IMG/VR virus record: IMGVR_UViG_3300008113_005947
Span: 11,326-75,325 of that record
Origin: a virus
DNA: 64,000 nucleotides
Strand: one strand, 5' to 3'
The position numbers and the translations under genes were made by a program. Every line of letters starts with the position of its first letter. Positions within the stretch are counted from its first letter, which is position 1. The notes beneath the pieces are model-generated. The model had not been told where the DNA came from, did no database searches, and worked only from the letters and a program-made list of their open reading frames with translations. Shown here one piece after another: positions 16,933 to 57,587 of the stretch.

Positions 16933-17156
16933 TAATCACCATAATATTCTATATTCAATCCGCCCTCATCATCAACATGCACACCGCATACATCAGAATC
17001 ATTAAGAGCATTTAGTATCATTTCTCTATCTTCATCATCTATTTTAACAGGTTTATCTACTTTATAATAATACAAGAGATAATTAATTTTATCCTGTAAT
17101 GTCATATCATCTGTAAATTTTTCTATAAGAGGCATTATAACACACAACTTTCGCAA
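16932..17156 (-). CDS. Small acidic hypothetical protein between nrdA and nrdB
   Basis: ORF fills the gap; the real start may be the downstream ATG (MPLIEK) at the nrdA stop. Confidence 0.55.
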   Translation of the reverse strand: MRKLCVIMPLIEKFTDDMTLQDKINYLLYYYKVDKPVKIDDEDREMILNALNDSDVCGVHVDDEGGLNIEYYGD

Positions 17157-23059: not shown

Positions 23060-26000
23060 TTATATATTTTTTATGAAGCCACCGCCAGTGCCACCACTAC
23101 CCACTGTAGAAGGTGATGATACTACCGAAGAACCTATTTGTATTGGGCTAGACACATATACAGCATAACTATTTGTTCCGGATTGATGTAAATCGTTTCT
23201 TCCCCAGAAGTATAATGCATTGTTAGTATCAGTAATCAAACTGAATTCATTACCTGCACGAACTTGTGTCCAGCTACCGGAAGCTACTACTACTGGACTA
23301 CTATTTATTATTCCAGTTAAACCAGTATTCACTTGCACCGGGCTTGATTTATTTACAGTGGTATTATCACCCATCCCTCCGTATGTATTAAATCCCCAAA
23401 GCCATATTTGTGAGAATTTATCTATATAACCACCAACGTTGCCGCTTTGTGCTATACTAACAACATTACCTGATGCTGTTATTTGTACTGGACTACTGCG
23501 ATATATCGTAGTATTATCACCTAATTCTCCTTGAAGATTATAGCCCCATGCCCATAAGTTATTATTGATATCTATAGCAAATGCATTCTCTACATTAGTA
23601 CCTTTAGATACTACTTGTTTAAATAAACTTGAACTTGCTACTTGTACTGGACTACTTCTACGAACAGTATTGTTATCACCTACACCCCCGTTTTGACCAA
23701 GACCTGTAGCAAATATTTGTCCAGTAGCTCTTAAAAGATATATGTTATTGATGCTAGCTGCCACTTGTATATGCTTTTCAGTACCAATTTGATATGGACT
23801 ACTTCTATCAATAGTAGTGTTGTCTCCCAACTGACCGTAAATATTTCTACCCCAAGACCAGGCTATGTTATCAGTATCAAGTGCAACGGTGAAGCCACTA
23901 TCGCTAACTGCAACTTGCAACCAACGTTTACTTGCAAATACTTGTACTGGGCTACTGCGTGATATAATAGTGGCATCACCCAATTGACCAGCACTATTAT
24001 CACCCCATGCCCACAATGTATTATCTGGTTTAATTGCAAAAACAAAAGTTTGTACATAAGTCGCGGCACAGACTGATGCCCAAGAACCTGGTATTTGTAC
24101 AGGGCTACTTCTAGCAATTCTATCTCCCTGTACTAATTGTCCTGCGGCGTTTTGGCCCCAGGCCCATAATGTATAATTTGTTTTAATAGCATAAGTAGCG
24201 CCTGCTGTGGCGTAACTAGCGCAGTCAACTATAATCCAGCTTCCGCCACCGGATACCTGTACAGGACTACTACGTGTTATTGTAGTGTTATCTCCCAATA
24301 CTCCATAATTGTTATAGCCGGTAGCCCATAATGTTCCGTCGTTTCTAATTGCATGTCTGACATAGCCACCACCACCACTGCCGCCACTATATTGCCATCC
24401 TGCATTATTACCAGCACCAATACCAATTGGCATAGGATTTACTCCGGCTGAACTTCCCCATCCAAATAGTCTACTATCTCTAGTTATGCCTAATGTATGA
24501 CTATAACCAGCACTAACTTGTGACCAACTACTATTGCCTATTTGATTTATCCCTGCTATATAAGTTTGACTTAAGCCGCCAACAGTTATAGGTGTACTTG
24601 TTGTTGTCACCGTTGAGTTATCAGCTAATTGACCAAGACCGTCAGTTCCCCAGACATATAATAGACCATCAGTTTTCAGAGCCGTTACATAGGACGCTCC
24701 CACGCCCACCGTAATAAAACTTAAACCTATTGTAGTTCTAAGTTTGTTAGGATATATGAATGGATTTTGGCCTACAGTATTAATTTGTACTGGGCCAGCA
24801 ATTAATCCAGTAGTATTATTTCCTATATTACCTACTGGATTATTTCCCCATGCAAATAATAATCCATCACTTCTTATAGCACTTACATAAATTGCATCAT
24901 AATATGCAGTAGGCGTTCTACCTACAATTGGATAGGTATTATAGTTTGCAATTTTTGCGACTGATACTGCAATCCAGCTACTTGTTCCTATTTGCACAGG
25001 ACTACTGCGATATATTGTAGTATTATTACCTAATTGACCATTGGGGCCATTATTTCCCCAAGCCCATAATGTAAAATCTGCTTTAATAGCAAATGTTGTG
25101 CCACCACCAGTTGATACTGCAATCCAGCTACTTGTTCCTATTTGTACAGGACTAGAATAAAAAGCAAACGTATTTGCTGTATACACTGAATCAAGTTGAA
25201 CTGGGCTACTTTTTGACACAACCGTGTTATCTCCGAGTTGACCCGTAAGACCATTGCCCCATACAAACAATCTGTTAGTAGTACCATCATTCAATAGACC
25301 GATAGCAACACCATTATTACCAGTACCAGACCCGATAGATACCCAACTACTTGTACCTATTTGCACAGGACTACTACGTGTGATTGTAGTGCCATCACCT
25401 AGCTGACCAACATTACCAAGTCCCCAAGACCATATTGTACCAGTTGTTGTTCTAGCTATGTATGAGCCGGCGCTACTAAAAATTGATACAATTTGTGTAA
25501 AGGAATACCCGGACATAATTTGCACTGGACTACTACGATACAATAGATGATTTGAATCATCTCCAAATTCTCCATAATTATTCCATCCACCTATGTTGTA
25601 TAATTGTCCTAATGTATTAATTGCGGCTTTAGTATATACTGCTATTGCTACACTACTCCAATTATTATTAGAACCAATTTGCACAGGGCTACTACGTGAT
25701 ACGGTAGTACCATCGCCTAATTGACCATACGTGTTATCACCCCATGCCCACAATGTACCATCAGTTTTTATTGCGAGTACACCTTGCGTCCCGGCGCCTT
25801 GTCCACCTTGGGCGGCAGCAGTAGTCCAGCTACCTAAAATTTGTACTGGTCTACTACGTGATATAGTATCATTTTGACCCAATTGTCCGTATAAATTTTG
25901 ACCCCACGCCCACAATGTGTTGTCATCCATTATAGCTATCTGCATTGCTCCAGAATCTGCACCAACACTAAATATCTGCGTCCAACTTGTACCATTAGTA

Positions 26001-41400: not shown

Positions 41401-44400
41401 TGTAGTGTTGGTGCCCATAGCTCCTATTGAACCATTACCCCAAGTCCATGCAATACCATTATTATCGACACCGGTAATTGTTTGTGCGCCTTGAGATGAG
41501 AATGTATATGATATTGGGGTTCCTATACCTGTGCCCGGACTTCCCGATTGTGTATAAACGAAATTGGTAGCTATCTGTACTGGACTGCTACGTGAAACGG
41601 TAGTGTTGTCACCCACAAGTCCAAGACTTGTACTCCAGCCCCAACCATGTAATGCTAATGATGCTTTGTTTGATGAATATTGAACACCAAAGAATCCTCC
41701 GTTATTTGTACCACTACTCTGGTCTGCGTATCCATAAACCTGAGTCCAGCTGTTAGCACCTATTTGTACTGGACTACTTCTAGCTACTGTATCATTTTGT
41801 CCACAAGATCCATTAGTGTTTACGCCCCATGCAAATAATCTTCCAACACTATCAATTGCTGCCATGCCACCTTGTGTTGTAGCAACTGCACTCCATGTAC
41901 TAGCACCTATTTGTACAGGACTACTACGGTTTACTGTATCATTCAACCCTAAACCACCTGCACCATTCGCCCCACTGTTAAGTCCCCAAGACCATAATGT
42001 GCCACCGGTTTTAATTCCTAAAGCCATATCTCGTTTAATACTGATAGTAACCCAACTACCAGGCACTTGTACAGGACTGCTACGATTAACAGTATCATTT
42101 AAACCTAACACACCTGATGTGTTTAACCCCCACATATACAATCTACCATCATTAGTTATTGCGGCAGTTACTTCACCAACTTGTGATGTTGTAAAGAAAT
42201 TGAAAGTTAATCCTGTTGTCCCTGCTACTTGAACTGGACTACTTCTAGCGACAGTAGTTAAATCTCCTATTTCTCCATTGGTATTACTTCCCCAACTCCA
42301 CAGTGTACCGTTTGATTTCATAGCATGTGTAGTTGACGTTGTTGTGTTATATCCTGCACTTTCTGATTTTACCCATAGATTATCTGTTGCAGTTCCTAGA
42401 ATACCTGGAATGTTATTATCAGCAGTACTATTATTACCCATTTGACCAAAGTTATTTCGTCCCCAAGTCCATAGATATCCGTCATTTGTAACTCCTGATC
42501 CAGCACCATATGTTAGCCAATGTTGTCTAAGGGCTGTTCCGCCAGTTAACTGCAATAATCCATTATTGCCCCAACCATACAATTGTCCTGTTGTTCTTAG
42601 TGCAAGTGTATGTGATGTACCCGGTGCCACTTGACTCCAATTTGTAATACTACTAGCTACTTGTACTGGACTACTTCTATTAATAGTAGTACCGTCACCA
42701 ACAGCATATAAAGTATTAGCACCCCAGGCCCATAATGTACCGTCAGTTTTTATAGCATAAGTTACTTCAAATCCAGCTGACACATAAGTATAACTACCTG
42801 CAACTTGTACCGGACTAAGATAAGTTGTAGTATTATTTTGACCTAATTGACCTGAATTATTTTTGCCCCAAGTAAATAATCTCCCTGAAGCGTCAATTGC
42901 CGCAACATGGCTCCAACCAGTTGCTACGCTAGTCCAACTACTATTTCCTATTTGTAGTGGATATGAAATATTAGTAGAGGGAAGAGCGTCACCAAAGCCT
43001 AATTGACCAATATTGTTGTTCCCCCAAGAAAATAATTTACCATCACTACGTATTGCTATCATAAATCCAGTATTGTCTGCACTATTTGCACCGGCACTTA
43101 TTGTAGTCCATGAATATGTTGTTGATAGACTTCTTCCTAATTGTCCAAAGTCATTTGCTCCCCAACTCCATAATGTACCGTCGGCTTTTAATGCTAACGT
43201 AAAATTAGATCCTACACTTATTGCAGTCCATGAACTAGTGCCTATTTGTACAGGGCTTGAAAGTAATTGAGTTGCGTATATATCGGTTCCAAATTGACCG
43301 TAAATATTATTACCCCAAGCCCATAATGTATTATCACTCTTAATAGCCAATGAAGTGAAACCACCATAACCAGAAGATACGGATAACCATGAACTATTAC
43401 CTATTTGTATAGGATTACTTCTTGCTATAGCACTACCGCCTGTATTATCACCTAATTGACCATACCGATTATCACCCATAGAATATAATTTATCATTTTG
43501 ATTAATCAATAGCGATGATAATCCACCACCGGATACGTCTTTAAAAAATAATGATCCGGCTTGTACAGCCGTAACTACGGAATTGGCAACAGTACCTAAT
43601 CCTAATTGACCATTGGCATTATTACCCCATGCAAATGTTGCATAATCTTCTCTTATTGCAAATCCGTTATAATAGCCACCTGCTACTAGTTTTCTAATAG
43701 TTGATACATATCCCAATTGTCCAACAGTATTAGAACCCCATGTAAATAATTTACTAGTAGTTGTAATTCCTGTACTAAAATCAACTCCAGCAGATACTAC
43801 ACTCCAACTGCTACTACCTATTTGTAGGGGATTATTTATTGTACTATAACTTAGTGATCCAACTTGTACTGGACTACTACGGTTTACGTTAGTATTATCA
43901 CCTACAGAACCATTTGCGTTTGAGCCCCAAGCAAAAAATCTACCAGCAGTATCAATTGCCGATGATACAAAATTATTACATGCTACAGCTGACCATGTGC
44001 TTGCACCAACTTGTACAGGGCTACTACGACTAATCGTAGTGTTTTGACCTAGTTGACCCCCATCATTTCTGCCCCATGACCATAAGAAATAACTAGAATC
44101 TAATGCTATTGTAAGTGAAAGACCTAATCCAAGTTTATACCACGTTTTGCCAACACCTGCTTGAACAGGACTACTTTTGTTAATAGTGGTACTATCACCT
44201 ATTTGACCAAAATTATTATATCCCCAAATCCATAATGTATTATCAGATTTAATACCACCTGATATGCCGTTTCCTGCAGTTATACTAGTCCAATTACCTG
44301 AAATTTGTACTGGACTACTACGTGCGGCAGTAGTACCATCACCTATCTGGCCAAATGTATTATTGCCCCATGCCCATAATGTATTGTCTGCTTTTCTTGC

Positions 44401-47400
44401 TAAAAATGTTCTTCCACCTGCGGCGCTGTTTGCTCCTTTGCCTCCTACTACCTCTACAAAAGTAGTTCCGGCAAGTACTTGTACCGGGCTACTACGAGTG
44501 ACTGTGGTTGCACCATTGTCGCCATATATACCACCAAACCATTGACCCCATACATATATAGTATTATCTGTTTTTATACCTAACGTAGTTTCGGCAGTTA
44601 CTGCAACAATAGACCAACTGCCACCACCGGATACCTGTACAGGACTGCTTCTATAAGTTACAGTATTATCACCCAACTGTGCGTTACTGTTTGCGCCCCA
44701 TCCCCATAATGTTCCGTCTGACTTGATTCCGAATGTGAAATAATCAACAGGGAATACACCTTCACCGCTAGCTACTATCATAGTCCAACTACCTGCAACT
44801 TGTACTGGGCTACTTCTACGAATAGTAGTGTTATCTCCTAGTGACCCGCTAGGATTATTATCTCCCCACATAAATAATTGTCCGGCACCGACAGTATCTG
44901 ATAAAATATATCCATTAGTATTGCCGCCGCCTACTAACAACATTGATATAGTTTTTGGAGTATTATATCCCACTTGTCCAGTATCATTCTTACCCCAAGC
45001 ATACAGTTTACTAGTGTTATCTATTGCAAGTACATGTGACGCTCCTGCACTTACACTAGTCCAAGATTTAGCACCAAGTTGAATAGGTACACTACGTGTT
45101 ACTGTATCTCCTTGACCCAATTGATATACAGAATTAAGACCCCAGGTAAATAATCTACTAGAAGTATCAATGGCACTACTATAACTTAATGAAGCTGATA
45201 TTTTAATGAACTCGTTAGAATACCCATTGGATAAAAATATAGGACTTGACCGTGCTACAGTATCACCTAAACCCAATGCACCAAATGTATTATTACCCCA
45301 TACATACAGTTTATTCTGTCCATCACGTATCATCATAGAGCCACGATTGATATATGCTTCTTTTAAATTTCCAGTAAAAGGCAATGCAACAACACTACTT
45401 CCTATTTGCACAGGGCTACTAGTATTAGCACCCGAAGATGTTATTAAGCTGTTACTTGTGTTTGTGCCCCAGCCCCAAATTGTATTATCGCTTCTTCTTG
45501 CTAGTGCTGTTCCACCACCACTAGCGTTTAATGTACCCTGTAAATCAACCCATCTATTATCTGCAATTGTTCCTAATTGTACCGGACTACTTTTATTAAC
45601 TATGTCACCTAATCCTAAAACACCGGTGGCGCCTTGACCCCATGTGAATATGTATCCGTTACCTATTGCACCTGCTGAATATTCACCTAAATTAGTAACA
45701 CCAGTAAATGTTATATTACTGAAAGGTGTAGCTACTTGTACAGGACTACTACGAGATAATGTAGTGCCATCACCTATTGTACCGTATGTTTGGTTTCCGC
45801 CCCAACCATATATTACGTTGTTAGTATCACTAGCAATGAAGGCAGCATTAGATGAAAATCCAAATCCATTAACTGGACCTATAATATAATTCCAGTTAGT
45901 TGATGTTCCCACCTGTACAGGACTTGATTTAGTAACAGTAGTACCATCACCCAACAATCCACCATCTCCATATCCCCATGTCCATAATGTTCCGTCAGTT
46001 TTTATTGCCGCGCTTGAACTTATTCCTGCCGCTATAACAGAAAAATCACTTAATGATAATACTTGAGTTGGGCTACTGCGTGAGACAGTACTAGTTAATC
46101 CTAATTGCCCTACGTTATTCATTCCCCAACCCCAAATTTTATTACCAGTAAGCGCAAGTATATGACGCCATCCTGTAACTACCTGGCTAAATGAAGATAA
46201 TCCTACACCAACACCTCCATTTAATTGCACTGGACTTGATTTACTAACAGTAGTACCATCACCTATTTTTCCATCACCACCATTACCCCATACAAATAAT
46301 AATCCACCTACTTTTATACCTACTGTAAAGGCATTGCCTGCACCTAATGCATTATAACCATATACACTAGTCCAACTACCTGCAATTTGCACTGGACTAC
46401 TACGTGATACAGTAGTACCATCACCTAACTGACCCTGGTTATTATCACCCCATAAGAATAATCTACTATCTGTTGTTATTGCCCCATACACACCTTTAGT
46501 AAGACTAGCCCAATTAGTATTAGTACCTAGTTGTACAGGACTACTGCGACTAATTGTAGTTCCATCACCTAAATACCCCGCACTATTAAATCCCCAGGCC
46601 CATAATGTGCCATCATTTCTGATAGCCATGACTGCACCTGATACTACTGATACAGCGGACCATAAAGTACCACTATTAATTTGTATAGGACTGCTACGTG
46701 ATACCGTAGAGCCATCACCAAAAGTTCCTTCAGCATTTCTTCCCCAACCCCACAGTGAGCCACCGCTTAAAAAGAATGTAGTTGTGTCTGTTGTTAAACT
46801 TGCAGTGTTTACGTTATAACTTAATTTAACGCCTATTTGTACTGGGCTACTTCTACGAATAGTAGCACTATTGTCACCAACTTGCCCAAAATCATTAAAT
46901 CCCCAACCCCACAATGAGTTATCACTTTTGATACCATATCTATTATATGCAGTATAGGCAATAGTTGGTATATAGTTCCAAGTACCAGCTAATTGCGTTG
47001 GCGCACTACGACTTGCTGTTGAAGTATCTCCAACTTGTCCATATATATTATTTCCCCATGCAAAGTATACACCGGTATTAGTAAGTGCTGTGCCTGCACT
47101 AATTTGAGTAATACTTAAGGCAGCAAAAGTTGCAATTTGTACTGGACTACTTTTTGCTACAGTCGTACTATCTCCAATCGCTCCGCTAGAGTTGCTTCCC
47201 CAAGCCCAAAGATTACCATTACCTGTAGTCAGTGCATATGTGGTGTCCTCCATTGTTTTTGCTACTAATGCCCATGAAGTTAATGCACCAACTTGGACAG
47301 GACTACTTCTATTAATTGTATCTCCTAACCCGAGTTGTCCTGCATTATTATATCCCCATGTCCATAATGTACCATCACTTTTAACTGCGGCGCCGTGAAA

Positions 47401-47727
47401 GCCACCACCACCTATTGACACCCAGTAAGGTGCAAAAATTTGTATTGGGCTTAATCTAGTTGTATTAGTACCATCACCTACTTGGAAGGCTGCATTACCG
47501 CCCCATCCCCATAATGTATAATCAGACCTGATTCCCAAAGTATGATTCGCTCCGGCACTTACATTAAGCCAACTTGATGTACCTAGTTGTATTGGACTTG
47601 ATTTACTAGCAGTGGTATTATCACCTAATTGTCCTGATGTGTTATCCCCCCAGGCCCACAAGGTGCCGTCACTTCTGACTGCCATACTATGAGAAGATCC
47701 GTTACTAATAGTTGTCCAACTTAACAT
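38410..47727 (-). CDS. Giant RCC1/BLIP-II-repeat beta-propeller protein, part 2 (3105 aa, about 58 repeats)
   Basis: Same repeat; starts at a repeat boundary and ends mid-repeat (GQLGDGT*); TAATG overlap with the upstream gene. Confidence 0.92.
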   Translation of the reverse strand: MLSWTTISNGSSHSMAVRSDGTLWAWGDNTSGQLGDNTTASKSSPIQLGTSSWLNVSAGANHTLGIRSDYTLWGWGGNAAFQVGDGTNTTRLSPIQIFAPYWVSIGGGGFHGAAVKSDGTLWTWGYNNAGQLGLGDTINRSSPVQVGALTSWALVAKTMEDTTYALTTGNGNLWAWGSNSSGAIGDSTTVAKSSPVQIATFAALSITQISAGTALTNTGVYFAWGNNIYGQVGDTSTASRSAPTQLAGTWNYIPTIAYTAYNRYGIKSDNSLWGWGFNDFGQVGDNSATIRRSSPVQIGVKLSYNVNTASLTTDTTTFFLSGGSLWGWGRNAEGTFGDGSTVSRSSPIQINSGTLWSAVSVVSGAVMAIRNDGTLWAWGFNSAGYLGDGTTISRSSPVQLGTNTNWASLTKGVYGAITTDSRLFLWGDNNQGQLGDGTTVSRSSPVQIAGSWTSVYGYNALGAGNAFTVGIKVGGLLFVWGNGGDGKIGDGTTVSKSSPVQLNGGVGVGLSSFSQVVTGWRHILALTGNKIWGWGMNNVGQLGLTSTVSRSSPTQVLSLSDFSVIAAGISSSAAIKTDGTLWTWGYGDGGLLGDGTTVTKSSPVQVGTSTNWNYIIGPVNGFGFSSNAAFIASDTNNVIYGWGGNQTYGTIGDGTTLSRSSPVQVATPFSNITFTGVTNLGEYSAGAIGNGYIFTWGQGATGVLGLGDIVNKSSPVQLGTIADNRWVDLQGTLNASGGGTALARRSDNTIWGWGTNTSNSLITSSGANTSSPVQIGSSVVALPFTGNLKEAYINRGSMMIRDGQNKLYVWGNNTFGALGLGDTVARSSPIFLSNGYSNEFIKISASLSYSSAIDTSSRLFTWGLNSVYQLGQGDTVTRSVPIQLGAKSWTSVSAGASHVLAIDNTSKLYAWGKNDTGQVGYNTPKTISMLLVGGGNTNGYILSDTVGAGQLFMWGDNNPSGSLGDNTTIRRSSPVQVAGSWTMIVASGEGVFPVDYFTFGIKSDGTLWGWGANSNAQLGDNTVTYRSSPVQVSGGGSWSIVAVTAETTLGIKTDNTIYVWGQWFGGIYGDNGATTVTRSSPVQVLAGTTFVEVVGGKGANSAAGGRTFLARKADNTLWAWGNNTFGQIGDGTTAARSSPVQISGNWTSITAGNGISGGIKSDNTLWIWGYNNFGQIGDSTTINKSSPVQAGVGKTWYKLGLGLSLTIALDSSYFLWSWGRNDGGQLGQNTTISRSSPVQVGASTWSAVACNNFVSSAIDTAGRFFAWGSNANGSVGDNTNVNRSSPVQVGSLSYSTINNPLQIGSSSWSVVSAGVDFSTGITTTSKLFTWGSNTVGQLGYVSTIRKLVAGGYYNGFAIREDYATFAWGNNANGQLGLGTVANSVVTAVQAGSLFFKDVSGGGLSSLLINQNDKLYSMGDNRYGQLGDNTGGSAIARSNPIQIGNSSWLSVSSGYGGFTSLAIKSDNTLWAWGNNIYGQFGTDIYATQLLSSPVQIGTSSWTAISVGSNFTLALKADGTLWSWGANDFGQLGRSLSTTYSWTTISAGANSADNTGFMIAIRSDGKLFSWGNNNIGQLGFGDALPSTNISYPLQIGNSSWTSVATGWSHVAAIDASGRLFTWGKNNSGQLGQNNTTTYLSPVQVAGSYTYVSAGFEVTYAIKTDGTLWAWGANTLYAVGDGTTINRSSPVQVASSITNWSQVAPGTSHTLALRTTGQLYGWGNNGLLQLTGGTALRQHWLTYGAGSGVTNDGYLWTWGRNNFGQMGNNSTADNNIPGILGTATDNLWVKSESAGYNTTTSTTHAMKSNGTLWSWGSNTNGEIGDLTTVARSSPVQVAGTTGLTFNFFTTSQVGEVTAAITNDGRLYMWGLNTSGVLGLNDTVNRSSPVQVPGSWVTISIKRDMALGIKTGGTLWSWGLNSGANGAGGLGLNDTVNRSSPVQIGASTWSAVATTQGGMAAIDSVGRLFAWGVNTNGSCGQNDTVARSSPVQIGANSWTQVYGYADQSSGTNNGGFFGVQYSSNKASLALHGWGWSTSLGLVGDNTTVSRSSPVQIATNFVYTQSGSPGTGIGTPISYTFSSQGAQTITGVDNNGIAWTWGNGSIGAMGTNTTINRSSPVQVSAAGNYYLGSTTLYPFTISNNVVYRLWAPRPIQLEVGSSFTQVTAGQYSSAAIKSDSTLWVWGYNEYQALGITYSFTQIAGSDSHTMALRGDNTLYMYGLGTAGALGDNTIVTKSSPIVLTAGGVRRWTLVAGANTNAPNSASFGIKDDATLWAWGSNTDGQLGQSDTISRSSPTQIAGSWSVLMTGRSNFHMLAIKTDGTLWAWGINSNGQLGDSSTASRSSPVQLAGTWTNIWGGAAMSMALKNDGTYWTWGSNSLGQLASNTTVNRSSPVQVTSGFANVSQMRPYANGFAYLNTLGQLFAWGANNNGELGVLNDTVHRSSPVQVRTDASWITLATTDRSTTAVRTDYLVFAWGRNNSGQVGDSSTVSRSSPVQLLSLNTANSASFIQLFSGFERNYILVSNEPTGKMWAWGLNTTGQLGDLTLTNKSITGAVWSGVLSLSMFQPIPVQIAGSWTQVGFGNDNFSVNNQFAVKTDGTLWSWGSNNVGQTGNNFALASRTQFQPRQVGSSTNNTIVSVRSSYAAFRNSSGSIFTVGSNSVGQLGDNTVINKSSPVQLSTGYIEYTPSQIPGSWTQINASNFTGFVTPTTHALGLKTDNTLWSWGSNSTGQLGDNTTISRSSPVQIAGSWSVISAGSSHSGAISTSGVLWMWGRNNEGQLGDFTTVSRSSPVQIISSWVGNLPLIIWSKLSLGYDSTFATTTISGATAQNQELVWSWGFNSAGWVSLGDNQNVNRSSPVQLGSINSVQISLLQNRSSPTQVGNSNWSTVSAGYSFAYGILSNNSLFAWGSNGGSSSILSDGSTTDRISPVQLSTYNFTLLASGGSHITAVMSNDPVLGYKMVASGLNTTGQLGQNNTNTYGVQYKLAGMSFVAAANASSPVQIGSVDYGNYYRSSPVQIGTDSWSSVSSGENHSLAKNSSGLLFAWGYNVNGQVGDSSTINRSSPVQISSSSYTLISAGYNHNIIEKSDGSVYTFGNNSNGQLGDGT

Positions 47728-50700
47728 TATGTATTATTTCCTATCTGTCCAAACGTATTATCACCCCATGTAAATAAATTACCATACGCATCAATTGCAT
47801 TGCTACTATTATTAGTAGCGGCAATATACTTATATATCTTAGTACCTACTTGCATCGGACTACTTCTAGGTAATAAGCTACTATTATTTAACCCGCCGTT
47901 AAGATTGGCTCCCCATGTCCATATTGTACCATTTTGTGCCAATGCTACACTATAACTTTTGCCTGCTTGGACATCTGTCCAATTGCCTGATACTTGTACT
48001 GGACTTGATTTAGTAACAGTAGTACCATCACCTAATTGTCCATTACTATTTGTACCCCATGTCCATAGTGTATTATCGATTCTAATTGCTGTAGTGAAAT
48101 TATCAGATACACTACCTATTATCCAACTATTTGTTCCAATCTGCAATGGGCTACTTCTATTAGACGTTGTTATATCTCCTAATTGTCCGAATCCATTATA
48201 GCCCCACATATATAATCTACCCAAAGCATCTATTGCCATGCTAGTTGACATACTAGCATTAACAAATGCCCAGCTACTTAATAGTCCTATACGAACTGGT
48301 CTATCATAAAAATTTCCTTTTCCTGTACCCATTTGTACAGGGCTACTGCGTGAAAGAACATCATTAAATTGTCCCAATTTTCCAGAGTCGCCTTGACCAG
48401 TCACCATAGTAGTATCATTCAATACACCAAATATATTAACACTGCCTGCATATAAATTAGTAAAGCTAAATGATCCTACTTGCACCGGGCTACTTCTAGA
48501 TAGAGTATCATTTTGTCCTAACTGTCCCCAAGTATTATCTCCCCATGCCCATATTGTTCCATCAGTTCTTAATGCACTAGAGAAACTATAACCTGCACTT
48601 ATTTGAGTATAACTGCTAGAATTTAATTGTATAGGGGATGGTACTATAGTTTTTAGTGCTGTATCTATTTGTACAGGACTACTTCTTGAAATTACAGTAC
48701 CATCACCTAGTTGTCCTGAACTATTCGACCCGAATGTAAATAATACTCCCGCAGAATTTATATATCCTGCTTGATTTTCTATACCACTAATTAAATCTGT
48801 GTTAGGAAGCTGTTTATATGTTCCAGAAAGTACAATGGGACTTGATTTATTAACTGTGGTATCATCACCTAGTTGACCTAATTGATTACGACCCCATCCA
48901 TACACTACACCACCACTAGTTCCGAGTACCGTAGTTGCAAATGCAGTTACGTCAGTCCAACTACCAGGTACTTGCACTGGGCTACTTCTAGCTGTTGTAT
49001 TATTTTGTCCTAATTGTCCGTATAAATTTTGACCCCATGACCATAAAGTATTATTAGATTGTAATGCTACTACACCATATAAAGTAGATACAACTTTAGT
49101 CCAAATATTCAATGTACCAACTTGTACTGGGCTACTTCTATTAATTGTAGTTCCACTACCTAAATTTCCATTGACATTGAGACCCCAGGTCCACAGTGTG
49201 CCATCTGTTTTTACTATAGCTACATATGATAAACCTTGACAAACTGAACTTATGCCACCGCCAAATATTTGCACAGGACTACTACGACTAATTGTACTAT
49301 TATTCCCTAGTTGACCTACGGAGTTACTACCCCAAGCATACAATCCACCATTACTTGTTAAACCTATTGTGTTTCCATTTGTAGTATAAATTTTAGTCCA
49401 ATTGAGAGCAGTTCCTATTTGTATCGGACTACTGCGATATATTGTAGTATTATCACCTAGTTGTCCAATATTATTGTATCCCCATCCATAAAGAACACCA
49501 GAAAAATCTACTGCAAACATACTTGCAGAACCAAAATCACCACCTAAGGTTCCTAAAAAGCTAAATGACATTGTACTAACTTGCACTGGACTACTTTTTG
49601 ACACTGTAGTACCATCGCCATATGACGGCGTTGTAACGCCTACAGTTGAACCCCATGCATATAAGTATCCACCATTTTTTAATCCAAAAGTAGTAGAACC
49701 CATTGATACTTGTAGCCAACTATTAGAAGAAGTTATAGTTGCAAGTTGACCGAATGTATTACTACCCCAAAGATATAAGCTATTATTAATCAAACCCATA
49801 ACGTGTGAACTGCCTGCGGCAATTTGAGTCCAACTACTTGTTCCTATTTGTATAGGGCTACTACGATAACCCATATTAGATTCTAAGTTATTTGCTAATA
49901 CTCCAAATGTTCCATTGCCCCAACTCCATAATGTACCATTACTCTTAGTAGCGATAGTAAAATCACTTTTTATACTTACTAAATTCCAACTACCACTAGT
50001 TTGTATTGGGATTGAACGAGTGACTGTAGTATTATCACCAACTTGGCCACTAGAGTTAAGTCCCCATACAAATAATCTCTTGTCTGTTGTTATTGCGGCA
50101 CTAAAAGATGCGCCGGCGGTTATTAAACTCCAGCTACTATTACCAACTTGTAACGGGCTGTTTCTAGCTGAGGCTGAACTTCCAGTACTTGTTTGTGTTG
50201 GGCTACCTTTATCAACTGTAGTATTATCACCCAATTGACCTGTAGTGTTAAGTCCCCATGTATTAAAATTACTAAGAACATCTAGTCCATAAGAACTATA
50301 TGCACCTGTAGAAACATAAGTCCAACTGCTAGTACTTACTAAAGAAATTTCTCTAACTGCTGTATTTACTATCTGTACAGGATTACTTCTTGCTATAGTA
50401 GTACCATCACCCAACTCACCATTTTTGTTTCCACCAAATGCAATTGCATATCCTTGGCTAGAATAAGCTATAGTATGAAACTGAGTGTCAGTACTTGCAG
50501 GAATGCCAGCACCACCTGCATATACTTGAGTAAATGATATACCTGTAGATATTTGTACAGGACTACTTGTATTGTTTATTGTATTATTACCCAACTGTCC
50601 TGCAGAATTCAAACCCCAGGTAAATAATCTACCTAGGCTGGTAATCCCGACTGAATGAAAGGTTCCAACAGAAATATTAGTCCAATTACTGTTACCTACC

Positions 50701-53700
50701 TGTACAGGACTACTTCTATTAATTGTATCTTCTAATCCAAGTTGTCCTACATCATTTCTTCCCCATGCATATAATCCATTATTAAGTTGAATTGCTAAAG
50801 TGTGACCACCACTATTGCCGCCGGTTGATACTGCAATCCAGCTACTTGTTCCTATTTGCACAGGGCTACTACGATTAATTGTGGTGTTGTCACCTATTTG
50901 ACCAAGGGAGTTGGAGCCTGAAGCAAATAATCTATAATTAGCATCAATTACCACTGATGTTGAGTCCCCGGCTGATATAACAATCCAAGAACTAGAACTT
51001 ATTTGTACTGGACTGCTACGACTTACTGTTGTAGTGTCACCCAACTGTCCACTGGTATTTAATCCCCAAGCCCATAATGTACCGGTAATATTAGTTGCCA
51101 ATACATGCGTAGTTTTTACACTTACTTTTGTCCAGCTACCTGCAATTTGTACCGGGCTACTGCGTGATACTGTAGTACCATCACCTAATTGTCCACTGGT
51201 ATTTAATCCCCAACCCCATAATGTATTATCTGGTTTGATTGCAAATATCGTATCTTTATTGACTGAAGAAGAAATCGCTATCCAACTGCTTGTGCCTATT
51301 TGTACTGGACTACTGCGTGATACAGTTGTAGTATTATCAAGAAATACACCATTTGATGCTTTACCCCATTGCCACAATGAATAATCAAGTCTAGTTGCTA
51401 ACCCAGTACTAATGAGACTAAACGAATTACCAGAACCTACTTGACTAAATGAGTTAGCTCCCCAACCATATAATAAACCAGTTGTAGTTATAGCTAATGC
51501 ATGTGATTCACTTGCAGTAACACTAGACCAACTAGTTGATGTACCTATTTGTATCGGACTTGATTTACTAACAGTAGTATTATCACCTAATTGATATGAA
51601 GTGTCATCACCCCATGCATACAATTTTCCATCAGTTGTAATTCCATATGAAGCATTATAATTACTTGCAATAACAGACCAATTGCTAGTTCCTAATTGTA
51701 CTGGACTGCTACGACTTACTGTTGTACTGTCACCCAACTGTCCTACATTATTATATCCCCATGTAAGTAATTTAGTTGTAGAATTTATTGCTGTGGTAAA
51801 TCCATCTCCTGTGGTAGACCCGGCTATATTATAAGGATTTAATGTTGTTACTGCCGGTGTACCTGTTGTAAAATATGCGGGATTACCAACTTCATTTAAC
51901 TGCCATCTTGCACTTGAATTACTATAATAAGTAGTATAGGTGTCCATGTAATAATAAGGCAATGCTATACCTGAATAATTATACTGACCTATACCCAATC
52001 CTGCATATTGAACAGTACCTGATATACTTGCGGGTGCGCCAGCACCGGTTGAACCTACTTGATTATAATTATATGGTATTCTAGCTGGTGTAAAACTAGC
52101 ATTATACATTGCTTGACCGGATATAATACGAAGTCCGTGGATATAACCGTTCCAATATGAATTTGAGGCTCCGCCTCCATTGGCACCAATAACTAATATT
52201 GTTTGTACTGTAATAGCAGTAAGTGTCGTAGTACCAGTTAAGGTTTGGCTTATACCATTAATGTATATTGATATTGCTCCGGCATTTACACTAATTGCAA
52301 TATGAGTCCATGTACTAGCTGATATAGCATTTACTGTTACCGTGCTTGTAGTTCCGCCGGCACCGCCTATATTTAATAATCCATACTCAACTTGTCTACT
52401 ACTATTTATACTAACAGCAAAATTATTAGTAGATGCTGTGCCACTATTTCCTGCAATTACGGATCTTACCGCACCGCCGGTATAATAAACCCAAGCCTCA
52501 AACGTGTAGGTATTAGCCAATGCTGTTGGTATACCAGTACCTGTATACCAACTAGATGATCCGTTAAAACTTACACTATATGCTTGAATAGTAGTATCAG
52601 GTTTGCCACCTGCAGAAACAAGATTCCAATTAGTTTCTGATCCTATCTGTGTAGGGGTACTACGATTAATCGTTGTTCCATCACCTAGTTGACCATTACT
52701 ATTATTTCCCCAGGCATATAATCTACTAAAAGGACTACTTATTGCTACACTATGACTTGATCCTGCAAATATTTGTGTATATTTTACTAGTGTTTCGTTT
52801 GTTCCTGCCAAATATGTTGTGAAGGGTGAAGGTGCTCCTGTATATCTCGGTGAACCGGCGCTGGTAATAGTTCTACTATTAGCACTATCTACGGCTGGAT
52901 TTGTTTGCAATGTTAATAATACAACTTGACCAGCAGTTATTGCCGCAGTATTTGCACCGCCGTATGGATTAGCAGACTGTGTTAATTGTAATGGACCAGT
53001 TGGTGTTGTAAAATTCACTGAGGCAGCATACACAATACTATTAGTAAATCTAAGATTGTTTATCAATCCTCTAAAATTTACTCTAGGATGTCCAAAATAT
53101 GATCCAATCCATGTTTTATTAAATGCTACTGTACCACTAGTAACGTAATTAGCCCAGGTAGCACTTGCTAACCAGACACCATTAATATATGCATGTGTGA
53201 GTGTAGTATTTCTCACTATCGCAAGATGGTACCATGTATTAACACTTAAACTTGCGCTGAAATTAGTAGTTGCAAAACTGTGTTGAAGTGCTAGTGTTGA
53301 GCGGCCAGTTGATGAATTATTATAATACGTTTGTATAGAATTATTATTGACCACTAGTACCCAACTCAAAACACCATTAGTCCAATCACCAAAAGAAAAT
53401 ATTGGTTGCGGGAAATCAAAGTCTGTTGCGTAAAAGAAACATTCAAGTGTTTTACTTGTTGTGTTAAAATCAAAGGTAGAACCTGTTGCGCCGCTTTCAG
53501 CAAGACTAAAATTATTCTGTGTTATTGAATTAGTTAATGGATATTGATTGAATACTGCTGATATAGTTGCTGATGATGGTGATACACCTGCACTAATTTG
53601 TGTTGGACTACTACGTGTGATATATGTACCATCACCTAGTTGTCCACTACTATTATCACCCCATGCATATAGTGTACCATCAACTCTTAATGCCAGTGAA

Positions 53701-56700
53701 TGAGTTGAGCCTGCTGAAACACTAGTAAAACTAAATGCACTTCCTTGACCAGTGGCAGCAATTTGTACAGGGCTACTACGATTAATTGTGGTGTTGTCAC
53801 CTATTTGGCCAAGCTGATTATTTCCCCAACCCCATACAGTATAATCACTACGTAATGCTACTGTATGAGATAATCCAGATGCTATTCTTGTCCAACTTAA
53901 CCCCGATAATTGTCCATTGTTACTTGCACCCCAGCTAAATAATTTTCCATCAGAACTTATGGCTAGAGAATGAAAGTTACCTGCTGCCACTTGACTCCAA
54001 CTTCTTCCTATTCCAACTAATACCGGGCTACTCTTATTAACAGTAGTTGTATCTCCTAATTGACCTACAGAATTAATTCCCCATGCATATAATGTGCCGT
54101 CATTTTTAATAGCTAATACATGTGATTCGCCTACAGAAATTTTATTCCAGTAATTATTTAAAAATGCAGGGAATGCTATATACATAGGATCTAGCTGAGT
54201 ACCCCATCCGTATAAGTATTTGTCTTTTGATACACCTAAAGTATGATAAGTGCCTGCACTAACTGATATCCAACTACTTGTACCAATTTGTACAGGACTA
54301 GATACGTTAGAATATGCAGGAACTAATACTGGACTACTTCTATTAACAGTGTCTCCTAAACCCAATTGTCCTTCTACATTATAACCCCATACATATAATC
54401 CATTATCCCTGAACGCTCCGTTATTAGGAAAACCCACTGCTTGGGGAGGTAGATTAACAATTTTAGTTAAATCCCAATTTGATCCAATTTGTACTGGACT
54501 ACTTCGCCGTGAAGATCCAGCACTATCTATATATCCGCCTTCACCGACTAAATTTCCCCCCCAACTGTATAAATAGCCATAAGTGTCAACTGCAAGAAAT
54601 CCGGCAGTACCACCTCCTTCGAATGCACGTACACTAATCCAACTACCGGCTATTTGTACCGGACTACTTCTATTAATTGTATCATTTTGACCTAATTCTC
54701 CTTGAGCATTTCTACCCCAAACCCATAATGTATTATCTATTCTTATGGCTCCGGTTGCGTTGGTCGAGGCACTTATGTATGTCCAGCTACTTGTTCCTAT
54801 TTGTATTGGGCTACTACGTGATATTGTAGTACCATCACCTAGTTGACCATTACTATTGTTTCCAAACGAGAATAGCGCACCGTCAACTCTTAATGCATGA
54901 GTAACGCCATTAATTAGCGAAACCATTGTCCAACTACTAGTACTTATTTGTACAGGGCTACTACGAGAAACTACATCCCCTGTTCCAAGTTGGCCGAAGC
55001 CATTACTACCCCATATCCACATCTTATAATTAACATCTATGGCTGCCCCAGTGCCTGAGCCAGCATATAATTTAGTAAATAAACCTGAATTTATAATAGG
55101 TGTGGGTATGGTCCTGCTACTCACAGTATTGTCACCCAACTGTCCACTGGAATTTAATCCCCAACCGTAACATCTACCATCTTCTGTAATACCTAATGTA
55201 AAGCGACTTCCTGTAGATATTGATTTCCATTTAAGTAGCCCATAATCACCAGAACTTGCGCCAGACACACCAACTTGTACAGGATTACTCCTATATACAG
55301 CGCCCACTCCTATTTGACCATCGAGATTGTATCCCCATCCCCACAATGTACCATCATTTCTAATAGCCATAGTGTGGTCTGATATTGCTACACAAGACCA
55401 TCCTACATACGGAGTTGGTCCTGTACTTGGTCCTATTCCCAATTGACCATTCATGTTAAAACCCCAGGCCCACAAGCTGCCGTCACTACGTATTGCTACT
55501 GTATGGCTTGCGCCTCCTGTTATTGAAGTCCAGCTATTACTACCTATTTGTACTGGACTACTACGATTTAATGTTGTACTATCACCCAATTGTCCACTAT
55601 CATTTGCGCCCCATGCAAATAATGCACCGTCACTTCTAATTGCTATTACATGATTTCCACCATCACGTAATGCTATCCAATTAAGATCCGTTGCTACACT
55701 ATTAATACCTAATTGTCCGTAATTATTAACACCCCATGAAAATAATGCACCATCACTTCTAACAGCTATTGTATGTGAGCCACCTGAACTTACAGCAGAC
55801 CAACTACTGTTTCCAATCTGTACTGGACTACTACGTTGTATCGTAGTACTATCGCCTAATTGCCCATATGGATTCAATCCCCATGCAAATAGTTTATTTT
55901 CTGTAGTAATAGCTAATGTGTCAAATTTGCCAGCACAAATATATGTGTAACTACTTGACCCTACTTTACCTAATACTGCTTGGAAATTAGGATTAAATGT
56001 ACCTACTTGTGCAGGACTACTACGATTGTCTGCCCCGACGCCACCTCCTATGCTGTATAATTGCCCAACAGAGTTAAGATAATATGTTCCCCATGCGGAT
56101 ATAGTAACACCTTTACTTGCAGGTGTACCAAAATTGCCCACCTGAACAGGACTTGAATAATGTGCTGTTGTATTACCTAAACCCAATTGTCCACCTGCAT
56201 TATAACCCCAAGTAAATAAGTTATTATTAGCATCTACTGCAATTGTAAAAAATCCAGTTCCTGAAGTATTAAAATTTGAAGCTACTTGTGACCAACTACT
56301 ATAACCAATTTGAGTTGGGTTAGACCTATATAAGCCAGTAAAATTAAAGCCAAAATCGCCAAAGTCATCTCTACCCCATGCAAATAATAAACCAAGAGAA
56401 GTTATACCGTATACAGCATAACTACCTGACACCATAGACCAACTTAACTGTCCTACCTGTACAGGCTGGCTACGATTAATTGTTGTTCCATCACCTAATG
56501 AGCCGTATGTTTGATTGTATCCCCATCCCCACAGTGATGAGTTTGCTGATTTTATTGCAAAGCCGCCACCGTAGCGTCCAAAAACTTTTTGATATCCTGT
56601 ACCAATTTGTACGGGACTGCTTTTATTTGTTATTGTGCCATCACCTAGTGCACCTGCAGTAGCTATACCGGTAGCAAATAATCTACCATTAATATCTATC

Positions 56701-57587
56701 ATATATGTTGCGGGAAGTGAGGATGCGGCATCACCTACCGAGGCTGCAACTTGAATATAACTACTTGTACCAATTTGCACCGGACTACTACGTGCAACAG
56801 TAGTACCATCACCCAACTGTCCAGAGGTATTTGCACCCCAACTCCATAAACTTCCGTCACTTCTAATAGCATGACTGGTTGATTGGCCGGCGGCTATTTG
56901 TGAATAGCTATTTCCGGTACCTAATTGTACTGGGCTACTTCTATTAATAGTATCAGCTAGGCCCAATTGACCGTGTACGTTAGAACCCCAAGTCCATAAG
57001 CTACCATCGCTTTTTAATGCTACAACATGGCTGTCACCACTAACCATTTGAACATATGATATTCTAGCACCTAATTGACCTGCAGTATCTGCACCCCAAG
57101 TCCATAAACTACCATCACTCTTTAATGCAACATTATGATATCCACCAGCATTTACACTAGTCCAACTTTTGTTGCCTGAAATTTGTACTGGATAACTTCT
57201 ATTAATTAGAGATGCATCTGCTAGTTGACCATAGTTGTTTAGTCCCCATCCCCATAGTGTGTAATCTTTATCTATAGCTACTGTATGATAATTACCTGCA
57301 CTAACTGCAATCCAACTAATTGTGCTAGCAATTTGCACAGGACTGCTTCTATCTAGTGTAGTATTATCGCCCAATTGACCTAAACTGTTAGACCCCCAAG
57401 CAAATAATATACCATCACTACGTACTGCTACAGTATGTGTGCCACCTGCGGCAATTTGACTCCAACTGTAATATTGAGGAGATGTTGCACCTATTTGACC
57501 ATAGGTGTTGTCACCCCACATGAATAAATTAGTTGCCGAGCCTGAAGCTGCCTGTACTGCAAGTAAACGCCACGCTAAGGAGCTCAT
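47727..57587 (-). CDS. Giant RCC1-repeat protein with two LamG/concanavalin-A-like domains, part 1 (3286 aa, about 55 repeats)
   Basis: Same repeat; short N-terminal helix MSSLAWRLLAVQAASG; GAGGAGG RBS; ends mid-repeat (GQIGNNT*). Confidence 0.92.
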   Translation of the reverse strand: MSSLAWRLLAVQAASGSATNLFMWGDNTYGQIGATSPQYYSWSQIAAGGTHTVAVRSDGILFAWGSNSLGQLGDNTTLDRSSPVQIASTISWIAVSAGNYHTVAIDKDYTLWGWGLNNYGQLADASLINRSYPVQISGNKSWTSVNAGGYHNVALKSDGSLWTWGADTAGQLGARISYVQMVSGDSHVVALKSDGSLWTWGSNVHGQLGLADTINRSSPVQLGTGNSYSQIAAGQSTSHAIRSDGSLWSWGANTSGQLGDGTTVARSSPVQIGTSSYIQVAASVGDAASSLPATYMIDINGRLFATGIATAGALGDGTITNKSSPVQIGTGYQKVFGRYGGGFAIKSANSSLWGWGYNQTYGSLGDGTTINRSQPVQVGQLSWSMVSGSYAVYGITSLGLLFAWGRDDFGDFGFNFTGLYRSNPTQIGYSSWSQVASNFNTSGTGFFTIAVDANNNLFTWGYNAGGQLGLGNTTAHYSSPVQVGNFGTPASKGVTISAWGTYYLNSVGQLYSIGGGVGADNRSSPAQVGTFNPNFQAVLGKVGSSSYTYICAGKFDTLAITTENKLFAWGLNPYGQLGDSTTIQRSSPVQIGNSSWSAVSSGGSHTIAVRSDGALFSWGVNNYGQLGINSVATDLNWIALRDGGNHVIAIRSDGALFAWGANDSGQLGDSTTLNRSSPVQIGSNSWTSITGGASHTVAIRSDGSLWAWGFNMNGQLGIGPSTGPTPYVGWSCVAISDHTMAIRNDGTLWGWGYNLDGQIGVGAVYRSNPVQVGVSGASSGDYGLLKWKSISTGSRFTLGITEDGRCYGWGLNSSGQLGDNTVSSRTIPTPIINSGLFTKLYAGSGTGAAIDVNYKMWIWGSNGFGQLGTGDVVSRSSPVQISTSSWTMVSLINGVTHALRVDGALFSFGNNSNGQLGDGTTISRSSPIQIGTSSWTYISASTNATGAIRIDNTLWVWGRNAQGELGQNDTINRSSPVQIAGSWISVRAFEGGGTAGFLAVDTYGYLYSWGGNLVGEGGYIDSAGSSRRSSPVQIGSNWDLTKIVNLPPQAVGFPNNGAFRDNGLYVWGYNVEGQLGLGDTVNRSSPVLVPAYSNVSSPVQIGTSSWISVSAGTYHTLGVSKDKYLYGWGTQLDPMYIAFPAFLNNYWNKISVGESHVLAIKNDGTLYAWGINSVGQLGDTTTVNKSSPVLVGIGRSWSQVAAGNFHSLAISSDGKLFSWGASNNGQLSGLSWTRIASGLSHTVALRSDYTVWGWGNNQLGQIGDNTTINRSSPVQIAATGQGSAFSFTSVSAGSTHSLALRVDGTLYAWGDNSSGQLGDGTYITRSSPTQISAGVSPSSATISAVFNQYPLTNSITQNNFSLAESGATGSTFDFNTTSKTLECFFYATDFDFPQPIFSFGDWTNGVLSWVLVVNNNSIQTYYNNSSTGRSTLALQHSFATTNFSASLSVNTWYHLAIVRNTTLTHAYINGVWLASATWANYVTSGTVAFNKTWIGSYFGHPRVNFRGLINNLRFTNSIVYAASVNFTTPTGPLQLTQSANPYGGANTAAITAGQVVLLTLQTNPAVDSANSRTITSAGSPRYTGAPSPFTTYLAGTNETLVKYTQIFAGSSHSVAISSPFSRLYAWGNNSNGQLGDGTTINRSTPTQIGSETNWNLVSAGGKPDTTIQAYSVSFNGSSSWYTGTGIPTALANTYTFEAWVYYTGGAVRSVIAGNSGTASTNNFAVSINSSRQVEYGLLNIGGAGGTTSTVTVNAISASTWTHIAISVNAGAISIYINGISQTLTGTTTLTAITVQTILVIGANGGGASNSYWNGYIHGLRIISGQAMYNASFTPARIPYNYNQVGSTGAGAPASISGTVQYAGLGIGQYNYSGIALPYYYMDTYTTYYSNSSARWQLNEVGNPAYFTTGTPAVTTLNPYNIAGSTTGDGFTTAINSTTKLLTWGYNNVGQLGDSTTVSRSSPVQLGTSNWSVIASNYNASYGITTDGKLYAWGDDTSYQLGDNTTVSKSSPIQIGTSTSWSSVTASESHALAITTTGLLYGWGANSFSQVGSGNSFSLISTGLATRLDYSLWQWGKASNGVFLDNTTTVSRSSPVQIGTSSWIAISSSVNKDTIFAIKPDNTLWGWGLNTSGQLGDGTTVSRSSPVQIAGSWTKVSVKTTHVLATNITGTLWAWGLNTSGQLGDTTTVSRSSPVQISSSSWIVISAGDSTSVVIDANYRLFASGSNSLGQIGDNTTINRSSPVQIGTSSWIAVSTGGNSGGHTLAIQLNNGLYAWGRNDVGQLGLEDTINRSSPVQVGNSNWTNISVGTFHSVGITSLGRLFTWGLNSAGQLGNNTINNTSSPVQISTGISFTQVYAGGAGIPASTDTQFHTIAYSSQGYAIAFGGNKNGELGDGTTIARSNPVQIVNTAVREISLVSTSSWTYVSTGAYSSYGLDVLSNFNTWGLNTTGQLGDNTTVDKGSPTQTSTGSSASARNSPLQVGNSSWSLITAGASFSAAITTDKRLFVWGLNSSGQVGDNTTVTRSIPIQTSGSWNLVSIKSDFTIATKSNGTLWSWGNGTFGVLANNLESNMGYRSSPIQIGTSSWTQIAAGSSHVMGLINNSLYLWGSNTFGQLATITSSNSWLQVSMGSTTFGLKNGGYLYAWGSTVGVTTPSYGDGTTVSKSSPVQVSTMSFSFLGTLGGDFGSASMFAVDFSGVLYGWGYNNIGQLGDNTTIYRSSPIQIGTALNWTKIYTTNGNTIGLTSNGGLYAWGSNSVGQLGNNSTISRSSPVQIFGGGISSVCQGLSYVAIVKTDGTLWTWGLNVNGNLGSGTTINRSSPVQVGTLNIWTKVVSTLYGVVALQSNNTLWSWGQNLYGQLGQNNTTARSSPVQVPGSWTDVTAFATTVLGTSGGVVYGWGRNQLGQLGDDTTVNKSSPIVLSGTYKQLPNTDLISGIENQAGYINSAGVLFTFGSNSSGQLGDGTVISRSSPVQIDTALKTIVPSPIQLNSSSYTQISAGYSFSSALRTDGTIWAWGDNTWGQLGQNDTLSRSSPVQVGSFSFTNLYAGSVNIFGVLNDTTMVTGQGDSGKLGQFNDVLSRSSPVQMGTGKGNFYDRPVRIGLLSSWAFVNASMSTSMAIDALGRLYMWGYNGFGQLGDITTSNRSSPLQIGTNSWIIGSVSDNFTTAIRIDNTLWTWGTNSNGQLGDGTTVTKSSPVQVSGNWTDVQAGKSYSVALAQNGTIWTWGANLNGGLNNSSLLPRSSPMQVGTKIYKYIAATNNSSNAIDAYGNLFTWGDNTFGQIGNNT
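51810..52605 (-). other. LamG/concanavalin-A-like lectin domain 2 (inserted)
   Basis: YSVSFNG, YTFEAWVY, TWTHIAIS, IYING, WNGYIHGLRI; coordinates approximate. Confidence 0.85.
52785..53585 (-). other. LamG/concanavalin-A-like lectin domain 1 (inserted)
   Basis: TLECFFY, NTWYHLAIVRN, AYING, FRGLINNLRFT; coordinates approximate. Confidence 0.8.

Follow-up and report, generated by a model that had tools for sequence, protein, structure and literature searches.

We analysed a window of 64,000 nucleotides of viral DNA (IMG/VR record IMGVR_UViG_3300008113_005947, positions 11,326 to 75,325) and predict that three giant proteins encoded in it are built of seven-bladed RCC1 propellers inserted into one another. 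Positions 23060-57587 are filled by three abutting open reading frames (ORFs) on the minus strand, here called A, B and C. The best explanation of their repeat pattern, to which we give a probability of roughly 0.7, is that circularly permuted RCC1 propellers are recursively inserted in one another in three coupled chains, which probably serve the virion as a fibre or adhesin.

Blade anatomy and the open and close signals

A hidden Markov model (HMM) of 47 columns, built from the window's own repeats, counts 55 blades in A, 58 in B and 96 in C. The total of 209 and all three partial counts are identical to those in a preliminary description of this DNA. The Pfam families RCC1, RCC1_2 and WD40_RLD match proteins A and B along their full length, with bit scores for A and B of 1083 and 1060 (PF00415), 751 and 632 (PF13540), and 1602 and 1807 (PF25390). 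The blade content of protein C (5117 amino acids) was taken from PF00415 matches over its frame and from the repeat HMM; a scan of the genome itself gave 150 PF00415 matches over all three genes and covered the frame of C throughout.

In both AlphaFold2 models described below, DSSP assigns SSPVQIG to a beta strand and GQLG to a loop. We therefore read a blade as four strands and an inter-blade loop. On the evidence of the models, strands a to d are probably SSPVQIG, SWxxISAG, HTLAI and LWAWG in that order, and the loop behind them is xNxxGQLGDGTTxxR. The preliminary description had taken RSSPVQ for the back half of the repeat. Since the models make SSPVQIG a blade strand instead, an insert would be better described as a velcro-closed, circularly permuted propeller in an inter-blade loop.

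Among the blades of the window, the spacing between GQLG and the SWxxISAG that follows it has three modes. Normal spacings are 14-23 amino acids long (about 146 cases). Eighteen spacings are at most 11 amino acids long and lack an SSPVQ segment; we call these "open". Open linkers are often only 0-4 amino acids long. Within the class of at least 24 amino acids, a subset contains two SSPVQ-like strands, which we call "close". The examples quoted in the preliminary description are all present, the opens as GQLGARI/SY at A173, GQLSGL/SW at A1227, GQLGRSLSTTY/SW at B1531 and QALGITY/SF at B2189, and the doubled SSPVQ strands at A1083/1095, C472/484 and C5022/5037.

With SSPVQIG as the first strand of the blade, the blades between an open and the close that follows can be written bcd-(a-bcd)x6-a. 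This would be a propeller of seven blades in which the last strand completes the first blade. Such a unit lodged in the post-GQLG loop of another blade is expected to leave an open and later a close. Self-closed propellers in series show no boundary, which accounts for token-free runs such as B1-18.

Insert sizes across homologues

A rule based on gap length only, with no hand curation, was run on 122 proteins with 7567 blades; three of these proteins are those of the window, and 119 are giant homologues of metagenomic origin. Exactly seven blades lie in 82 of the 132 adjacent open-close pairs, against about 8 pairs in 181 with any multiple of seven when the token positions are shuffled. The same count in 59 ORFs of 77 independent IMG/VR loci gives 21 of 29 pairs.

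Verified inserts were then removed and the newly adjacent open-close pairs counted again. Multiples of seven are found in 83/140 pairs in the first round of this iterative collapse and in 12/16, 3/4, 2/2 and 2/2 pairs in rounds two to five (19/24 overall). The shuffled control gives 8/181 in the first round and 0.1/1 in the second. Automated parsing of insert sizes, proposed as a check in the preliminary description, thus returns a sharp peak at seven that recurs after inserts are collapsed. Detection of closes with a position-specific scoring matrix for the second SSPVQ strand was abandoned; it missed many degenerate closes and corrupted the upper levels of a stack parse. The gap-length rule with iterative collapse is sturdier.

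The distance from a close to the next open is 1, 2, 3, 4 or 5 blades in 53, 20, 10, 7 and 6 cases among the 122 giants, and seven blades in only 2 cases. Opens also come in runs, such as those at B26, B30 and B34. The mostly short distances (one to three blades) and the runs of opens exclude a plain string of propellers.

Eight bacterial-type giants in the set (P0093, P0104, P0114, P0054, P0072, P0107, P0112 and P0042) have 56, 56, 56, 56, 42, 42, 42 and 49 blades. They have essentially no opens and carry surface or secretion domains (a type IX secretion system (T9SS) tail or other cell-surface domains). The bracket grammar is apparently limited to a subset of RCC1 giants, seemingly the phage-borne ones. 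There are no close orthologues lacking a given insert between 99% and about 40% identity.

Bracket parse of the window

Adjacent open-close pairs in the window that hold seven blades are A4-11, A15-22, A42-49, B18-25, B34-41, B42-49, C2-9, C45-52 and C62-69. The pair C70-84 holds 14, and A31-39 holds eight, or seven if a weak second strand behind A38 is counted. An exhaustive search over 37 confident and 15 optional tokens found a best parse of 19 matched pairs, each with 7, 14 or 28 blades at its own level and none wrong. All nine higher-level pairs enclose multiples of seven, and two bracket pairs cross gene boundaries. Every one of 40 controls with the same tokens at random positions had at least seven violations and at most five good pairs.

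According to this parse, the array is 5-6 tiers deep; about 25 of its propellers are bracketed, and 34 blades are left at the top level (Table 1). This agrees with the earlier estimate of about 30 propellers; the seven nesting levels claimed with it come down to five or six.

Predicted structure of an insert

We folded residues 717-1343 of protein B with AlphaFold2, using an alignment of 29 rows from the window and IMG/VR loci. This model, the second of two, has a mean predicted local distance difference test score (pLDDT) of 80.5 and a predicted template modelling score (pTM) of 0.59. Whole RCC1-like propellers align to it only at model residues 206-579, which is the bracketed unit B19-25. 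UVR8 aligns over 346-352 of about 370 residues (root-mean-square deviation (rmsd) 1.9-2.4, Z 48-49), and RCC1 and the HERC2 RCC1-like domains (RLDs) align at Z of about 40. Taken together, these structures match the predicted model over 320-352 residues at rmsd 1.9-2.6 and Z 38-49. The full-length UVR8 alignment takes in the last SSPVQVG strand (model residues 567-575) and the first blade, which itself lacks strand a. Blade 26, behind the insert, is modelled at pLDDT 79-89.

There is no ring over the first seven consecutive blades (15-21) of this model. The preliminary description had named the comparison of consecutive seven-blade windows with nested units as a check, and AlphaFold2 closes the ring on the bracketed unit and not on the first seven blades. 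The insert boundaries are thus supported by the predicted model. The ring, together with the insert sizes that peak at seven, bears out the earlier proposal that whole propellers are inserted, recursively, behind the GQLG of parent blades. A complex prediction of B717-1343 with B2866-3004, the two blades expected to complete the parent, scored 0.31 against a mark of 0.32 and counts for neither side.

Proposed architecture

We propose that a self-contained propeller would have the order bcd-(a-bcd)x6-a, in which the last strand a would complete the first blade in a 1+3 velcro closure. This closure would bring both chain ends of the propeller side by side. Such units could then enter, as circularly permuted domains, the post-GQLG loop of a blade that belongs to another propeller. 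Behind the insert this host would resume with its own strand a, leaving an open (no a) and a close (a twice). Insertion may have been repeated, inside inserts too, to give five to six tiers with about 25 bracketed and about 5 top-level propellers. We infer the re-closure of interrupted parents from blade counts and linker length.

The chain would further have been cut twice at the GQLG/a blade boundary, giving separately translated and translationally coupled genes. With cuts at this boundary, at least one propeller (A2-4, A12-13 and B57-58 with the N-terminal strand of C) would be completed between chains, joining A, B and C. Assembly between the chains and the virion-borne fibre or adhesin role, as part of the tail-fibre module and with LamG lectin-like tips, are what we infer beyond the token grammar, its statistics and the modelled ring at a bracketed unit. 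A fuller proposal combines genuine recursive self-insertion, a branched, dendritic three-chain particle of about 1.27 megadaltons locked in trans, and a widespread host-capture organelle of aquatic myoviruses placed beside the tail fibres. We offer it tentatively, as slightly more apt to fail in some part than to hold as a whole.

Points against nesting and alternative readings

Several results weigh against recursive insertion. The rule in the preliminary description that brackets enclose seven blades or a multiple of seven fits all 19 parsed pairs, at the price of 4 of the 15 optional tokens (opens A1 and A23, closes A38 and C39), which are judgement calls. The parse leaves closes C44, C95 and C96 unmatched, and a strand expected at the break between A and B is missing. 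A hand parse of C blades 11-44, made prior to the systematic search of optional tokens and since discarded, gave counts of 8 and 11. Blades of inserted propellers give no usable signal of similarity by offset modulo seven (0.294 vs about 0.286), and a search for collinear blade similarity found no recent duplications to show where inserts came from. The alignment rows of the second model were selected by the same token pattern that is under test. The first model, of the 21-blade nested unit B1536-2692 on a scrambled 27-row alignment of whole homologues, is poor (mean pLDDT 65.7, pTM 0.35); VIA-align finds in it just an arc of 4-5 blades (rmsd 2.1-4.9), and its inserts compare to RCC1 as distorted rings (rmsd about 11). 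In neither AlphaFold2 model can an interrupted parent be seen to close into a ring, the 21-blade one being poor. No virion attachment domain is recognisable in A, B or C.

The arrays also change. Relative P0005 is 99.1% identical to protein C, from which it differs by 2 substitutions and one 42-amino-acid indel. P0005 is longer by these 42 amino acids at C20, where it has one extra blade and one extra open, and the window has a hybrid blade (YAWGAK/ELGLND). The fusion looks like a recent in-frame deletion between repeats and is possibly an assembly collapse. This blade-fusing difference implies that arrays change by recombination between repeats and that not every ring need be perfect, a further point against strict nesting.

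The alternative that survives best, and one we still consider unlikely, is that the brackets are recombination scars: seven-blade cassettes would have been pasted into older arrays whose parents no longer form rings, and the short segments would be linkers or open arcs. The parent ring that no model shows and the tolerance of recombination seen at C20 speak for this explanation, and parent blades score slightly lower on the repeat HMM (median 45.5 vs 54.5 for insert blades), partly because opener blades lack strand a. Against it, many independent proteins keep own-level counts at multiples of seven through as many as five successive collapses, and every pair in the window fits, whereas later indels should blur the counts if there were no selection for ring completeness. 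Parent blades also retain every consensus motif and, to judge by their HMM scores, are not decayed, and the blade behind the insert is modelled with good local scores.

Less probable still is an arrangement of about 30 consecutive seven-bladed propellers like beads on a string, with the tokens marking a switch between an N- and a C-terminal closing strand. Long token-free runs (B1-18) do exist, bacterial-type relatives are plain strings of 6-8 propellers, and the poor first model continues the arc of blades 31-34 into blade 35, but there the rmsd climbs from about 2.1-2.6 to about 4.9. A string would require strict alternation of opens and closes at multiples of seven, which the runs of opens and the short close-to-open distances contradict, as do lone blades with tokens on both flanks (B26, B42). 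The ring of the second model is placed on blades 19-25 and not 15-21. Open linkers of 0-4 amino acids would also be too short to lead, within one ring, to the inner strand of the adjoining blade. Recursive insertion of permuted propellers remains our preferred reading.

Gene junctions and chain ends

The stop of gene A is placed directly behind a GQLG-type loop, and the split between B and C is kept in the 99%-identical relative, where the end of B and the start of C are unchanged. Among the 122 giants, 28 end directly behind GQLG and 22 start with strand a. In the IMG/VR locus L016, the first RCC1 ORF ends in GQLGL and a stop and the second starts with MPVNSPVLLG...LQPQLVDNSSW; as at the B/C junction of the window, the cut lies behind GQLG and is followed by two strand-a segments.

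A tree made of a single chain of 11.5 thousand amino acids, with frameshifting or read-through at both junctions or with junctions that are mere errors of assembly, would suit a repeat phase that crosses both junctions unbroken and brackets that balance only across genes, and is nevertheless very improbable given that both junctions are standard overlapping stop-starts with ATG, a frame change and no evident slippery heptamer, and that the near-identical relative, the other giants and L016 are cut in like manner. We suggest that the cuts evolved as gene fissions where two blades meet, and that the separate chains assemble with one another. Their recurrence suggests a simple path to obligate hetero-oligomers by splitting propellers between genes.

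Gene C has two SSPVQIG-type strands ahead of its first blade and two more at its C-terminal end (window 23060-23200), where they are followed by a Gly-rich tail. At the N-terminus of protein A (window about 57480-57587), the opening blade lacks strands a and c. The strands missing at chain starts could come from the three unmatched closes in C.

Genomic neighbourhood and likely role

The record from which the window was taken has 75,325 bases and a CheckV completeness of 21%. A virion structural gene at 58660-61887 has 72-77% DNA identity to counterparts in T4-like Synechococcus phages. Gene A abuts a gene that appears to encode a tail-fibre-assembly or chaperone-like protein (Table 1); two tail-fibre-like genes lie further upstream on the coding strand, as does the gene of a virion structural protein (phrog_5838). 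In 9 of the 10 other viral loci tested, the gene that abuts the giant RCC1 gene is likewise tail-fibre-assembly-like or a tail-fibre gene, and because of this conserved synteny we predict a fibre role. The most likely role, given the synteny and the LamG domains, is that of a virion-borne multivalent adhesin with LamG lectin-like domains. We found no trimeric shaft repeats or N-terminal adaptor domain in A-C, which consist of RCC1 blades and two LamG domains throughout. An RCC1-domain protein was detected by mass spectrometry in virions of the jumbo phage GAP32 (PMC5259590).

Both LamG domains are carried by one interrupted propeller, A26-31+39. The second splits blade A29 between strand b (NWNLVSAGG) and strand c (DGFTTAI), and behind each of the two there is an additional SP-containing strand-like motif.

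Directly downstream of the giants (19912-23002, minus strand) come two methyltransferase-like genes, one for a protein of 592 amino acids and one with a Methyltransf_24 match, and the gene of a GT25 glycosyltransferase. The products of these three genes might modify the Ser/Thr-rich repeat loops. The GT25 gene (19912-20622, minus strand) has an additional match to 2-oxoglutarate-Fe(II) oxygenases in PHROGs, and an aspartyl/asparaginyl beta-hydroxylase-like gene with a cupin domain lies at 6620-7846 on the plus strand. Asp and Asn are frequent in the RCC1 loops (GDNTT); a link of the hydroxylase and oxygenase genes to these loops is speculation. The window also contains genes for the large and small subunits of a class Ia ribonucleotide reductase (15820-19465, minus strand; phrog_84 and phrog_86), typical of large myoviruses.

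Table 1. Genes, junctions, domains and parsed propellers in the window (blades and residues are given by protein)
Feature	Window position	Strand	Blades or residues	Remarks
Gene A	47727..57587	-	3286 amino acids; 55 RCC1 blades	two LamG domains; C-terminus ...GQIGNNT(stop)
Gene B	38410..47727	-	3105 amino acids; 58 RCC1 blades	N-terminus MLSW (blade strand b); C-terminus ...GQLGDGT(stop)
Gene C	23060..38413	-	5117 amino acids; 96 RCC1 blades	
A/B junction TAATG	47725..47729	-		stop of A overlaps start of B; frame change
B/C junction ATGA	38410..38413	-		repeat phase unbroken: GQLGDGT(stop), then MSINTNRSSLTQVAG; frame change
Inserted propeller B19-25	43858..44943	-	B ~929-1290	between open GQVGYNTPKTIS/MLLVGGG and close RSSPVQVG..INNPLQIG; closed seven-bladed ring in AlphaFold2
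Stretch folded in second AlphaFold2 model	43699..45579	-	B717-1343	parent blades 15-18 and 26, with insert 19-25 between them
Smallest complete multi-level unit	39652..43122	-	B1536-2692	parents 31-34, 42, 50-51; inserts 35-41, 43-49; all brackets 7
Fused blade C20	35330..35420	-	around C residue 1014	WGAK/ELG
LamG-like domain 1	52785..53591	-	A residues ~1333-1601	between blades A27 and A28; Laminin_G_3
LamG-like domain 2	51831..52604	-	A residues ~1662-1919	within blade A29; Laminin_G_3
Tail-fibre-assembly or chaperone-like gene	57587..58156	-		abuts gene A; Phage_tail_APC, PF16778, phrog_4912, phrog_8716
Inserts without further insert (A)			A5-11, A16-22, A32-38, A43-49	
Inserts without further insert (B)			B19-25, B35-41, B43-49	
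Inserts without further insert (C)			C3-9, C46-52, C63-69	
Double-length inserts			C24-37, C71-84	14 blades
Interrupted parent			A26-31+39	holds both LamG domains
Interrupted parent			A24-25+40-42+50-51	
Interrupted parent			B31-34+42+50-51	
Interrupted parent			B27-30+52-54	
Interrupted parent			C12-23+38-39	14 blades
28-blade level			A14, 15, 23, 52-55, B1-18, 26, 55, 56	
Parent spanning genes			A2-4, 12, 13, B57, 58	

Comparison with known systems

The repeat family and the seven-bladed fold of the phage blades, as judged from Pfam and the modelled insert, are those of RCC1, UVR8, the HERC2 RLDs, RPGR and BLIP-II. In known RLDs the propeller is contiguous and stands alone or in a short series, whereas the phage propellers appear to be permuted at a blade hairpin and mutually inserted, with about 30 in three chains. 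The likeness to RLDs does not imply a role in guanine-nucleotide exchange or photoreception.

Among phage proteins, GAP_001 of GAP32 (PMC5259590) has an RCC1/BLIP-II signature and was detected in the virion, and the C-terminal propeller of phiKZ gp131 (PDB 4gbf) matches the modelled insert at Z 19.5. Both proteins are far smaller than the giants, and neither has been reported to be nested. In the literature that we searched, an incomplete library, there was no description of nested propellers or of the architecture of this phage family. Bacterial RCC1-array surface giants with a T9SS sorting tail (P0093, P0104 and P0114), recovered in the same homologue search, share the blade and are thousands of residues long, but the bacterial giants are plain strings of 6-8 propellers (42, 49 or 56 blades), whereas the phage-type proteins follow the bracket grammar. 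Many uncultured viral contigs have the grammar beside a gene for tail-fibre assembly, and it could point to a class of aquatic-myovirus adhesion structures not recognised before and relevant to host range.

To our knowledge, natural proteins nearly always have their domains in a line, with no more than a single level of insertion. If true, self-insertion over five or six tiers would be a new route to very large proteins, in which a simple repeat would yield a rigid, branched and multivalent surface. It would also provide a test case for folding, namely how interrupted parents wait while their inserts fold.

Propellers completed in trans include Sec13 with Nup145C or Sec31 and Seh1 with Nup85, where a foreign strand or blade binds the subunits together. 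The phage differs in that the cut is made at the GQLG/strand-a boundary of an array split into neighbouring genes; completion of its propellers in trans is suggested by bracket balance. A domain leaves and re-enters a propeller by one loop in the integrin alpha I-domain and in the SPRY domain of HERC1 RLD1, and DDB1, SF3b130 and CPSF160 are multi-propeller assemblies with triple propellers. Insertion in these cases is confined to a single level, or the neighbours interlock, whereas the phage proteins would insert the same fold into itself over five to six tiers.

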